Shown here piece after piece: positions 3,001-6,000 of a stretch of DNA of 64,000 nt. A program made the position numbers. This DNA is from Escherichia coli (GTDB taxonomy: Bacteria; Pseudomonadota; Gammaproteobacteria; Enterobacterales; Enterobacteriaceae). Every line of letters starts with the position of its first letter. Within the stretch, counting starts at the first letter, position 1. The stretch is taken from assembly GCF_016903815.1 (NCBI RefSeq), contig NZ_CP069974.1; one strand, written 5' to 3'.

Positions 3001-6000
3001 GTAGCCTTTGGTTTTGATGGCATCGTCTTTAATGTCATCAGTAATTACGCTGTCATCCAGTTTCGCATAACAGATACTGTCATCACCGGCTTCAATATAA
3101 CTGGAAAAATTTTCGCTGATAAAACGGTAGAAAAGTGCGCCCAGAACGTATTGCTTAAAATCCCATCCATCGACCGAACCCCTGACATCGTTAGCAATTT
3201 GCCAGATTTGACGATGAAGCTCTGCACGTTGTTGAATACTTGTCATTTTCATCCACTTATTTCAGGCTTATGTAATTGGCGGTGATTCTACAGCAACTTG
3301 GATGCTTTAGCAGTTCGGACATTAGGCTACGAATGACCTGCCTAGAGGTTTGTTAAGCCGCAAAGTGCTGGTGCTTTATGCCTGTGAAGTTTATAATTGT
3401 GTACACATAACGAGTACACGAGGTGTTTATGCAATCCATTAACTTCCGTACCGCGCGCGGCAACCTTTCTGAAGTGCTCAACAATGTTGAGGCCGGGGAA
3501 GAGGTTGAAATCACCCGCAGAGGCCGTGAGCCAGCAGTAATTGTCAGCAAGGCTACTTTCGAAGCCTACAAAAAAGCGGCGCTGGATGCTGAATTTGCAT
3601 CCCTGTTTGACACCCTGGACTCCACCAACAAGGAACTGGTTAACCGATAATGAGGCATATATCACCGGAAGAACTTATTGCGCTTCATGATGCGAATATA
3701 AACCGCTACGGCGGCCTGCCGGGAATGTCTGATCCGGGCAGGGCAGAGGCCATTATCGGGAGAGTTCAGGCCAGAGTTGCCTACGAAGAGATCACCGACC
3801 TTTTCGAAGTCTCCGCCACCTACCTAGTGGCTACAGCGAGAGGGCATATATTCAATGATGCCAATAAGCGTACCGCGCTAAACAGTGCGCTGTTATTTCT
3901 ACGCCGTAACGGGGTGCAGGTATTTGATTCACCTGAACTGGCAGACCTTACCGTAGGGGCTGCGACCGGAGAGATATCTGTATCTTCTGTCGCCGACACG
4001 TTACGTAGATTGTATGGTTCTGCGGAGTAGATTAATGGCACGCAAATACAACAAATTGTCCCGTGAAGCGTTAAAGATGCTTCTTGATGGCGTGAGTCGC
4101 CGCGAGGTAAAGCAATACCTGGCTGGTAAGCAAATTGGTGCCAGGACCGCTATTGCTGTGTTATGCCGTCAGGAAATGGTTGTGCTTAAACAGAGAATGC
4201 CGGGCAGCAGATAAAGCCCAATCAGTGATGAAAGGTGTGATGTGAAAGCCGTAATTACTCCCTTTGTACAAAAAGAGCTTGGCGTCGCCACATTCAAAGT
4301 GGATCAGGAAGTCAGAAAGCTGGTGGAGGCTGGCCGTAAATTTATTATGGAGCCGGTGCCGCGTGAGTTAATCGAGCACATGGACGACGGCCTCGTTGTT
4401 TCCGAGCAAACTATGGCAACAAATGAGGCGTTGCAGCCGTTTTTTAACAGCGATGAACTGTTTCGCCGTATTGGTGGAATTGACTCGCTGGTAGCGTGGT
4501 TGCGCAGGAAAGAGGGGCAGGTCAGGCTGGGCCATGTCGTTCTCGCCGGACAGCAGGCTTACCATGAAAGCACTGGAAATGGCATGGGAAACCCGTGGTA
4601 AGCCCGTCGGGGTGATGTTCCACAGCGATCAAGGCAGTCATTATACGAGCAGGCAGTTCCGGCAGTTACTGTGGCGATACCGGATCAGGCAGAGTATGAG
4701 TCGGCGTGGAAACTGCTGGGATAACAGCCCAATGGAGCGCTTCTTCAGGAGTCTGAAGAACGAATGGGTGCCAGCGACGGGCTATGTAAGTTTCAGCGAT
4801 GCAGCTCACGCCATAACGGACTATATCGTTGGATATTACAGCGCACTAAGACCGCACGAATATAATGGTGGGTTACCACCAAACGAATCAGAAAACCGAT
4901 ACTGGAAAAACTCTAACGCGGTGGCCAGTTTTAGTTGACCACAACAATGCCAAGCTCTGCGGCGTGCAGACGCTGTACTTGTCAACGCCACGATCTTTGA
5001 CCGTCTTATATCGACAGAGTTATCCGGCATGGTGTCAATCCGTTCACAATTTTTCCATCGGAGCAGCCTACCACCGGTGATAACCAGACTTTGCCTGTAG
5101 TTTGTATACACAATCCCTGGCATTGAAACACACATATGAAGTGTACTTCGGATATGACCGTACGCTCAGGAAGTACGGCAGATTCCGTCAAAAATTACCT
5201 GTAAAGACAGACATCAGAAAAACAGTGCTCGCCGCAGACCGGTGACCGGGCGAAGCCCGCGAACCGGCGAGGAAGCGCAATGGATCTGTAGTTACAGTGA
5301 GCAGGTACGCCCTGAAGCCTTCATAATCGGTAGTGTATGCTGTTTTTCTGGAATGATTTATCCACATATCCAGAGGCCCGATCCAGTAAACAGATCCATG
5401 AATGATCAACAAAGGATCCATTAAAGATCCCCATATCTCTGCAAACCTTGTCACTCATGGGCCGGGACTACGATCACATAAGCTGTGGCATGTTACTGAT
5501 AAACTGTAACATGCTAATGATAAGCTGTATTCAGTAATCCATATACTGAAGTAAGTTAATGACATAAACTATGGTCAGTATGCCAGACTCAGTTGTTAAA
5601 TACAGGCTGCAGGTTTTTCTTCAGTCAGTTAGCGGAGTTCTGACACACGATTTTCTGTTTATTCTTTTACTGTCCACAGGCTGGAGGCTTTCTGGAAAAC
5701 GAAAATTCAGACATCAAAAAACTGTTCGGCGAGGTGGATAAGTCGTCCGGTGAGCTGGTGACACTGACACCAAACAATAACAACACCGTACAACCTGTGG
5801 CGCTGATGCGTCTGGGCGTTTTTGTACCGACCCTTAAATCACTGAAGAACAGTAAAAAAAATACACTGTCACGTACTGATGCCACGGAAGAGCTGACACG
5901 TCTTTCCCTGGCCCGTGCTGAGGGATTCGATAAGGTTGAGATCACCGGCCCCCGTCTGGATATGGATAACGATTTCAAGACCTGGGTGGGGATCATTCAT

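Follow-up and report, generated by a model that had tools for sequence, protein, structure and literature searches.

A phage P1-derived phd-doc-pdcA segment with a pdcB remnant on an IncF plasmid of Escherichia coli

Introduction

Two small open reading frames follow a phd-doc addiction pair on a stretch of Escherichia coli DNA, and an earlier note on this sequence asked whether they are accessory genes of the operon or remnants of a phage. We analysed the 64,000 nucleotides from contig NZ_CP069974.1 (hereafter the window), and the answer is both. The first frame is an intact gene of phage P1, pdcA, probably the third cistron of the phd-doc operon. The second is a remnant of pdcB. To our knowledge pdcA has carried its name since the P1 genome paper and its function has never been put to the test. 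The description of the two frames as uncharacterised was therefore fair, since pdcA and pdcB both have a name and no tested function.

We are highly confident that this region came from a P1-type phage-plasmid and is now part of an IncF (RepFIB) resistance plasmid, where it adjoins a type IC hsd locus. It comprises the complete addiction operon, pdcA as its probable third cistron and pdcB cut by an IS911-like element. There is nothing unusual in such a phd-doc addiction operon with its operator, pdcA and a truncated pdcB, and it has been described before. We computed the identities, boundaries and domain content as well as conservation and distribution; for the regulatory and killing mechanism we rely on published work on the identical P1 proteins.

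Results

The segment is derived from phage P1

Window positions 3353-4519 align with 87970-89133 of P1 (NC_005856) at 97.9% identity, with no gaps over 1.17 kb. The left edge of this homology is the humD stop codon of P1 and the right edge is an IS junction at 4516-4519. Between them lie the Pphd promoter, two GTAC-centred palindromes, phd, doc, pdcA and the first 92 codons of pdcB (Table 1). Set against P1 88046-89902, the window has the same promoter, palindromes, gene order, overlaps and spacing. Phd is identical to its P1 counterpart (73 of 73 residues), Doc differs at one residue (125/126 identical; S18N) and PdcA at two (57/59 identical). The first 92 residues of the pdcB remnant differ from P1 PdcB at five (87/92 identical), after which the sequences diverge. 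The phd-doc call was thus correct, and the operon is P1's own, down to promoter and operator DNA.

The window departs from P1 in three respects. Its pdcB is cut behind codon 92 by the IS911-like fragment; a type IC hsdM occupies the position upstream of phd where P1 has humD; and its replicon is an IncF plasmid, whereas P1 is a prophage. An Rfam scan of window 3000-5900 (E <= 1) found nothing, so the small ORFs are not explained by a known RNA element.

Table 1. Coordinates of the features of the P1-derived locus and its surroundings in the window
Feature	Coordinates	Strand	Basis or remark
hsdM, type IC restriction-modification locus	1690..3252	-	Divergent from phd
Phage P1-derived block (Pphd/operator, phd, doc, pdcA, 5' part of pdcB)	3353..4519	+	Match to P1 NC_005856
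Pphd, predicted sigma-70 promoter (-35 3369-3374; -10 TATAAT 3392-3397)	3369..3397	+	Annotation of the P1 record transferred, offset +852
Operator site 1, perfect 10-bp palindrome TGTGTACACA	3398..3407	.	Identity to P1 Pphd
Operator site 2, imperfect palindrome CGAGTACACG, GTAC core	3411..3420	.	Overlaps the Shine-Dalgarno sequence (SD)
phd, antitoxin, 73 aa	3429..3650	+	PF02604 49.8 bits (cut-off 29.8); TIGR01552
doc, toxin, 126 aa	3650..4030	+	PF02661; TIGR01550 at 133 bits
pdcA, 59 aa, intact	4035..4214	+	phrog_3345 E 2e-43, full length; named PdcA in P1 and plasmid records
pdcB remnant, 119-aa ORF	4242..4601	+	Codons 1-92 of P1 pdcB (4242-4517) plus 27 accidental IS codons; stop 4599-4601
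IS911-like (IS3 family) 3' fragment: last third of orfB and right end	4525..4942	+	IS911 match
RepFIB repA	5734..6711	+	'repFIB replication protein A' in 99.86%-identical plasmid pCRE1.1

The operator palindromes are those of Pphd

The earlier note had placed a palindromic operator just upstream of phd, at about 3396-3420. Two candidate sites are present there, in DNA identical to P1 Pphd. The first, GTGTACAC at 3399-3406, reads the same on both strands and extends to the perfect 10-bp palindrome TGTGTACACA. The second, GAGTACAC at 3412-3419, lies within CGAGTACACG, a 10-bp palindrome with one mismatched pair. The sites are 13 bp apart, centre to centre, and sit between the -10 TATAAT and the SD and ATG (3429) of phd. 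Palindromic sites that adjoin the -10 are what is expected of the autoregulatory operators of Phd/YefM antitoxins.

Occurrence of the motif would not by itself single these sites out. GWGTACAC is found 4 times in the whole window against 1.7 expected, a count reached by 13 of 100 shuffles. We take the palindromes as real because of their position and because the Pphd region, 3360-3490, matches P1 base for base. Among 69 related sequences, site 1 is nearly invariant, with a sole variant position (3400, in 2 of 69), and site 2 has rare singleton variants only. A consensus promoter scan of 3200-5800 found no promoter on the + strand, Pphd included; Pphd was missed because its -35 is weak. The footprinted operator bases are given here as in the P1 record. 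Published work describes two sites in the Phd-Doc operator region (PMC3757116).

A similar arrangement is known from YefM-YoeB and Axe-Txe, which share the Phd/YefM antitoxin fold. Their operators overlap the promoter and consist of palindrome pairs built on TGTACA, whose centres lie 12 bp apart (PMC3920265). In the window the cores are (T)GTAC(A) and the spacing of the centres is 13 bp rather than 12. The toxins differ, YoeB having a RelE fold and Doc a Fic fold, and so does the geometry of corepression.

phd and doc encode a complete antitoxin-toxin pair

Both proteins score above the cut-offs of their families. Phd reaches 48.1 bits with TIGR01552 (cut-off 20.8) and matches PDB 3hry/3k33 at E 1.6e-42. 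Doc reaches 38.6 bits with PF02661 (cut-off 24) and 133.1 with TIGR01550 (cut-off 38.65), matches PDB 3k33 at E 8e-78, and carries HIFNDANKR, which fits the Fic-type motif HxFx(D/N)(A/G)NKR. The antitoxin gene lies directly upstream of the toxin gene, and the phd stop (3648-3650) overlaps the doc ATG (3650-3652) in TAATG. In the related loci pN/pS is 0.13 for phd; the loci were picked by Doc identity, which biases the ratio for doc.

By analogy with P1, Pphd would transcribe phd and doc, which would be translationally coupled. Upon plasmid loss the labile Phd would be degraded and Doc freed. Doc, a Fic-fold kinase, would then phosphorylate EF-Tu and arrest translation, thereby stabilising the plasmid. 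This mechanism has been described for Phd-Doc (PMC4803016, PMC3920265). With 125 of 126 residues of P1 Doc retained, Doc is probably toxic here as well, neutralised by Phd and able to stabilise the plasmid (PMC4803016).

pdcA is an intact gene behind doc

The coordinates given earlier for the first small ORF, 4035-4214, proved exact: an ATG at 4035, a stop at 4212-4214 and a product of 59 aa. PdcA matches phrog_3345 over residues 1-59 of 59 (E 2.2e-43). Its SD, GGAG at 4024-4027, lies inside the 3' end of doc, and its ATG follows the doc stop by 4 nt. The homology search that the earlier note had called for, with a lack of homologues as the counter-evidence, returned a P1 homologue for each small ORF (pdcA and pdcB).

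A full-length, gapless and stop-free pdcA is present in 82 of 83 related loci. In 82 copies (35 haplotypes) there are no stops and no indels or frameshifts, and pN/pS is 0.37. Of the 32 variants 14 are synonymous, more than the expected 22% (binomial P = 0.005), and the polymorphic sites number 8, 10 and 12 by codon position. Selection on pdcA is weak.

Relatives beyond this group are few. When 1.84 billion proteins were searched exhaustively with HMMER, the sole distant relative was a 61-aa chromosomal homologue in Yersinia mollaretii with 44% identity and 68% positives over 50 gapless residues. Three repeat proteins of about 900 aa (P0101-P0103; E ~3e-4, HMMER) were taken for chance matches; P0101, the one read, is a Cys/His-rich repeat protein. 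Pfam gave sub-threshold matches only (HTH_3, E = 0.09; Abhydrolase_11, E = 0.059) and NCBIfam nothing. PdcA is the product of a real gene, if a very narrowly distributed one.

We then considered how pdcA is expressed. From doc to 5800, a promoter and terminator scan found no promoter-like or terminator-like site on the + strand downstream of doc. The one + strand terminator-like site that it reports lies inside doc, and with 2 sites found against 2.8 expected by chance the scan lends weak support to the absence of a strong terminator. The D6-type relatives (phage D6 and IMG/VR loci such as L008) carry humD, phd, doc and pdcA, with the operator as in the window. They differ in lacking pdcB and in a PdcA C-terminus that is 6 residues longer; a strong intrinsic terminator stands directly behind the gene, and the genes beyond it are convergent. 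In 7 D6-type loci the homology ends at the pdcA stop, and in L008 a terminator with an 11-bp stem begins 2 nt after it, ahead of the convergent genes. A strong terminator directly after pdcA in these relatives points to pdcA as the third cistron of the operon. Gene spacing, the scan and the D6-type terminator together suggest that pdcA is co-transcribed with phd and doc, and it is probably translated in the present plasmid. pdcA would then be the intact third cistron of the Pphd transcript, with a 59-aa, predicted three-helix product that is probably dispensable for addiction.

pdcB is reduced to a remnant by an IS911-like fragment

The second small ORF had been given as 4242-4560 and fused to an IS3-family fragment. 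Its GTG start at 4242 holds, as does the fusion, with the P1 part ending at 4516-4519 and the IS part beginning at 4525. The end does not, since the frame stays open to a stop at 4599-4601 and encodes 119 aa.

Full-length P1 PdcB is 347 aa long, with DUF968 (His-Me finger; PF06147, E 3.6e-50) at residues 161-337. The window ORF holds residues 1-92 only and has no Pfam match, hence none of the DUF968/His-Me finger domain that marks the group (group 7, YdfU-like). The last 27 aa come from IS911 orfB read in the wrong frame. The N-terminal domain of PdcB found no match among PDB sequences at E <= 1, and a homologue search gave P1-like fragments only, a set too shallow to predict a structure from.

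Window 4525-4942, the 3' third of an IS911-like element, corresponds to IS911 positions 825-1242 (of 1249 bp) at 93.8% identity, with no orfA and no left end. An ORF at 4534-4938 contains C-terminal parts only of rve, rve_3 and rve_2 (rve profile positions 43-102). The two terminal inverted repeats, orfA and an orfB with a complete rve DDE core that a complete element would have are not found together here, and the piece is a non-autonomous fragment. The likely course is that an IS911-like element interrupted pdcB behind codon 92 and later lost part of its own sequence.

The segment lies beside a type IC hsd locus on an IncF plasmid

HsdM matches the HsdM of EcoR124 (EcoR124II; PDB 7bst) with 1155 bits over all 520 aa, as expected of a type IC system. 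The presence of RepFIB repA identifies the host replicon as an IncF plasmid. Type IC hsd loci (EcoR124, EcoDXXI, EcoprrI) have P1 DNA at their flanks. In the window it is P1 phd-doc DNA that abuts hsd, an arrangement that the P1 record notes for EcoDXXI. The hsd-P1 linkage is published, going by the title of Tyndall et al. (1997, Mol Microbiol 23:729), cited in PMC2853133. The P1-like phage-plasmid vB_EcoM-673R5 (ON470615), in which hsdRSM abuts phd, is 97% identical to window 1632-4519 and has the same order of hsdM, intergenic region, phd, doc, pdcA and pdcB. The phage has a full-length pdcB with lpa and pacAB behind it, whereas the homology in the window halts at the IS junction.

Discussion

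Could pdcA be an open frame that merely travels with doc and is too young to have decayed? PdcA belongs to no Pfam or NCBIfam family, and its homologues are all close, with at least 93% identity in phages and only P1-like elements of Escherichia and Salmonella represented in a large protein collection. Polymorphism is near even over the codon positions, at the pN/pS given above. The lack of stops proves little, as 32 variants should create only about 1-2. Against this stand a Yersinia mollaretii homologue of the same length at 44% identity and the conservation of an invariant core, DGVSRR..K.Y. The synonymous excess is also confined to the annotated frame (14:18, the other two frames each giving 9:23), the SD is good and at the right distance, and the D6-type module boundary and terminator fall exactly after the pdcA stop. 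We consider it improbable that pdcA is no gene. It is only slightly more credible, and still unlikely, that PdcA acts as a third member of the addiction module, for instance by binding DNA or modulating Doc/Phd as a small protein and so tuning the expression of the operon or the activity of the toxin. In 82 of 83 close relatives pdcA does stand behind doc, and it stays with phd-doc where pdcB has been replaced (D6 type) or destroyed (IncF type), with a doc-pdcA spacing that suits translational coupling. The predicted fold is a three-helix bundle whose best, non-significant matches are LuxR/GerE-type and other HTH domains, and the HTH_3 match, though weak, is of the same kind. The fold-search E-values all exceed 0.5, however (Foldseek against PDB, best E = 0.55), and the AF2 mean pLDDT is only 72; PdcA as an HTH protein stays a hint. 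Phd/Doc pairs are common while the PdcA relatives in the exhaustive protein scan are confined to the P1-like cluster and Yersinia, so other doc loci are generally without pdcA, and no doc gene adjoins the Yersinia homologue. Moreover, phd and doc alone are said, from the work of Lehnherr and colleagues in 1993 and later work, to suffice for P1 addiction and autoregulation. The P1 CRISPRi screen passed over pdcA for want of a PAM site, and the gene is listed as non-essential for the phage (PMC10695390). The main text of a P1 deletion survey (PMC9024508) makes no mention of pdcA or pdcB. A real gene dispensable for addiction is the reading of pdcA that we favour.

The chimeric ORF raises the same kind of question, namely whether the PdcB'-IS fusion is a new protein kept by selection. 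The identical pdcB-IS junction occurs in 414 plasmid records from several genera, and the frame is open, with a CDS annotated for it in some records. Yet the 25 best-matching plasmid records show 100% identity over 1351 bp that span the junction, as would be left by one recent event and its spread through plasmid transfer, not by selection. The chimera keeps 92 of the approximately 160 residues of the PdcB N-terminal region and none of DUF968, and its tail is out of frame with orfB. Selection for a functional fusion is thus extremely unlikely, and the 119-aa ORF is best read, from its sequence, as a non-functional chimeric remnant of a PdcB member that is itself no member of the family.

The phd-doc locus is one of the modules by which a widespread family of IncF multiresistance plasmids is maintained. 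Such plasmids inherited the type IC hsd and phd-doc-pdcA segment from a P1-like phage-plasmid. The locus has little import beyond correct annotation. The IS911 scar can serve as a lineage marker: the junction is common to the 414 plasmids, while the 3' part of pdcB, absent from the window, is present in 655 plasmids.

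The P1 phd-doc operon and its operator

In sequence reading and an ORF listing, 2800-5600 is arranged divergently. A 176-bp spacer separates a minus-strand ORF of 520 aa from four same-strand ORFs, with the phd stop overlapping the doc start (TAATG). In a megablast comparison with phage records, P1, P7, D6, SJ46, RCS47, and other punaviruses match at 97-99% identity, with Phd, Doc, PdcA, and PdcB annotated under the match. The P1 RefSeq record has the order Pphd (-35, -10), phd, doc, pdcA, pdcB (347 aa), and then the C1 operator of lpa. The comparison with P1 is gapless (offset 852), and homology begins at 3353, where P1 humD has its stop codon, and ends at 4516-4519. 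This stretch carries 27 substitutions, none within 3360-3490. Therefore the promoter, both palindromes, the SD, and the phd start are identical to P1. The phd-doc operon and operator are those already described for P1, and nothing at the locus is new.

Family matches agree with the P1 identity in supporting the phd-doc interpretation of the earlier note. Phd is identical to P1 Phd (PF02604 and TIGR01552 above threshold; structures 3hry, 3k33, and 4zm0). Doc (PF02661 and TIGR01550 above threshold; structures 3k33, 3dd7, and 3kh2) has one change from P1 Doc, S18N, and retains the HIFNDANKR motif in the P1 protein comparison. Phd is reportedly a ClpXP substrate, as Lehnherr and Yarmolinsky are said to have described in 1995. 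The mechanism is drawn from published work on the same proteins: the operator is occupied by Phd dimers, repression is strengthened when one Doc bridges two of them, and surplus Doc disrupts the repressing complex (conditional cooperativity). By phosphorylating EF-Tu, Doc halts translation (PMC4803016, PMC3920265).

The palindromic operator noticed earlier upstream of phd is present and unchanged from P1. Its two palindromes fill the stretch between the Pphd -10 and the phd SD and are nearly invariant among 69 related sequences; two sites are described in the phd-doc operator (PMC3757116). The window as a whole contains 4 occurrences of the motif where 1.7 are expected, and 13 of 100 shuffles reach that count. 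The palindromes are supported by position and homology, and motif count alone is no proof.

Features of the locus and its surroundings (window coordinates unless stated)
Feature	Position	Strand	Detail
520-aa ORF	ends 3252	-	ORF listing
Pphd -35	3369-3374	+	transferred from P1 annotation
Pphd -10	3392-3397	+	TATAAT; transferred from P1 annotation
Operator palindrome 1	3399-3406		GTGTACAC, same on both strands; extends to TGTGTACACA (3398-3407)
Operator palindrome 2	3412-3419		GAGTACAC, within CGAGTACACG (3411-3420); one mismatched pair
phd	3429-3650	+	73 aa counted from ATG
doc	3650-4030	+	126 aa
ORF 1 (pdcA)	4035-4214	+	59 aa
ORF 2 (pdcB remnant)	4242-4601	+	119 aa
D6-type intrinsic terminator	3585-3614 of L008		D6-type loci (P1 relatives like phage D6) L006, L008, L019, L023, L039, L080
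IS6-family copies	15425-16244, 20675-21494, 23417-24236, 37222-38041, 42482-43301, 53154-53973		820 bp (IS26-sized)
dfrA-aadA-sul1 segments	16255-20674, 48734-53153		4420 bp, inverted orientation

pdcA, the inferred third cistron

The first small ORF that the earlier note placed after doc is present, and homologue search identifies it as P1 gene pdcA. It matches phrog_3345 along its entire length (E 2e-43) and is named PdcA in P1 and plasmid records. Two starts are annotated: ATG 4014 inside doc (P1) versus 4035 (PGAP-type records). The 4035 start is better supported, because a GGAG at 4024-4027 sits 7 nt upstream of it and the alignment with a Yersinia homologue begins at residue 3 of the 59-aa form.

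We infer that pdcA is the third cistron of the phd-doc operon from its spacing and SD, from a scan of the window, and chiefly from the terminator position in D6-type loci. The gap from doc to pdcA is 4 nt, with the pdcA SD inside doc. The scan found no plus-strand promoter-like or terminator-like site from doc to 5800, and the P1 RefSeq annotation has no promoter or terminator from doc to the end of pdcB. In the D6 type (7 of 84 loci), homology to the window ends at the pdcA stop codon. These relatives differ in that pdcB is absent and the PdcA C-terminus is 6 residues longer (…MLGSRQSASSI). In one of them, L008, a T-tailed terminator with an 11-bp stem starts 2 nt 3' of the pdcA stop, and the next genes are convergent on the other strand. 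The predicted transcription unit of the D6 lineage is phd-doc-pdcA.

The PdcA family is very narrow. The tblastn hits are confined to 21 P1-like phage records (at least 93% identity), and a 5.8-billion-protein collection yielded variants from Escherichia and Salmonella alone. Searching 1.84 billion representatives exhaustively with HMMER added one credible distant relative, a 61-aa Yersinia mollaretii protein (P0100) that is 44% identical without gaps. Its gene is on the chromosome, flanked by a GNAT gene and umuDC. It lies at 4001-4186 of locus L085, 3' of the GNAT acetyltransferase gene, and is also found in L086-L089. In some strains it is just upstream of umuD-umuC; L086 lacks umuDC, and the neighbourhood is strain-variable. 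In P1, humD (a UmuD homologue) is just upstream of phd-doc-pdcA.

Constraint was measured in 80 IMG/VR loci fetched with Doc, plus P1, plasmid pCRE1.1, vB_EcoM-673R5, and Sf6. The 82 full-length gapless pdcA copies (35 haplotypes, 30 polymorphic sites) contain no stop codons. Variants are 14 synonymous to 18 non-synonymous (pN/pS 0.37), against 9:23 in each of the other two frames, a synonymous excess with binomial P = 0.005. For comparison, pN/pS is 0.13 for phd, 0.23 for the 5' part of pdcB, and 0.03 for doc, the last biased by how loci were selected. Selection on pdcA is real but weak. P1 pdcA is listed as non-essential, and it has no PAM site and so was left out of a CRISPRi test (PMC10695390). 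The same source gives pdcB as non-essential.

AlphaFold, with a shallow alignment, models PdcA as three helices (7-17, 22-31, and 36-54; mean pLDDT 72). Foldseek with this model gave no significant match. LuxR/GerE-type and other HTH domains are frequent among its top entries, a hint only that the fold may be HTH-like.

Truncation of pdcB

ORF 2 joins a truncated pdcB to an IS911-like fragment. The first 92 residues match P1 PdcB at 87 positions and the sequence diverges beyond. The fusion to an IS3-family fragment proposed earlier is borne out: at 93.8% identity, 4525-4942 corresponds to positions 825-1242 of an IS911 copy (1249 bp) annotated in phage Sf6. The end then given for the ORF, 4560, is wrong; its last 27 codons come from the IS fragment, read out of frame, with the stop at 4599-4601. 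Neither orfA nor the left end is present in the fragment, and the similarity of its ORF at 4534-4938 to the rve core is limited to the C-terminal part. The right tip (4938-4950) reads …GTTGACCACAACA versus …GTTGACCACTTCA in the Sf6 copy; either its inverted repeat ends in different bases or there has been slight erosion of the end.

In P1 PdcB, Pfam DUF968 covers residues 161-337 (E 3.6e-50). DUF968 belongs to group 7 of the His-Me finger (HNH) superfamily, with YdfU and YbcO (PMC5714182). For the PdcB N-terminal region, PDB and Pfam gave no match, and the homologue search returned P1-like relatives only. A working ORF 2 product is very unlikely, because it keeps 92 of ~160 N-terminal residues and lacks the nuclease domain.

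ORF 2 also matches phrog_11007 (134 positions, no function given) over residues 2-119, IS-derived tail included. The chimeric 119-aa ORF scores 189 bits versus 181 bits for true P1 PdcB, and 133-aa pdcB fragments are numerous in the protein collection. Truncated pdcB ORFs may be the source of phrog_11007. The 27-nt pdcA-pdcB spacer (4215-4241), which holds the pdcB RBS, varies at a single site across 74 related loci; polymorphic sites make up 10-17% of the flanking coding DNA and 20 of 76 positions in the promoter region.

Plasmid distribution and origin

phd-doc is a routine entry among IncFIB/FII plasmid addiction systems (PMC7822866). A 1351-bp query matches 2716 PLSDB records at least in part, 1074 of them with at least 80% coverage. 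A 101-bp probe over the pdcB-IS junction matches along its full length in 414 records; 655 have the 3' part of pdcB missing from the window and are mostly non-mobilizable P1-like plasmids of ~95 kb. The sum of 414 and 655 is close to 1074, so two forms explain nearly all carriers.

Window 1-8650 is 99.86% identical to IncFIA/FIB/FII plasmid pCRE1.1, annotated there as hsdR, hsdS, hsdM, Phd, Doc, PdcA, 'pdcB', and then RepFIB RepA. HsdM is essentially that of EcoR124, which makes the hsd locus type IC. The stretch 1632-4519 (hsdM-phd-doc-pdcA-pdcB') is 97% identical to P1-like phage vB_EcoM-673R5. In that phage the same type I hsd locus adjoins phd, where P1 has humD, and pdcB is intact, followed by lpa and pac. 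On this basis the plasmid segment is best read as a piece of a vB_EcoM-673R5-like phage-plasmid, cut on the right side by the IS. The P1 record gives 98% identity to sequence upstream of the EcoDXXI hsd locus. The hsd-P1 linkage is already published, reportedly by Tyndall et al. in 1997.

hsdS and hsdR are more diverged from vB_EcoM-673R5 (87-93% in patches). Elsewhere in the window, the six IS6-family copies, each with a 240-aa transposase ORF, are mutually at least 99.4% identical and typical of an IS26-built multiresistance region. The class 1 integron cassette array with dfrA, aadA, and sul1 lies in the duplicated segment, whose two copies are 100% identical and each abut an IS6-family copy.
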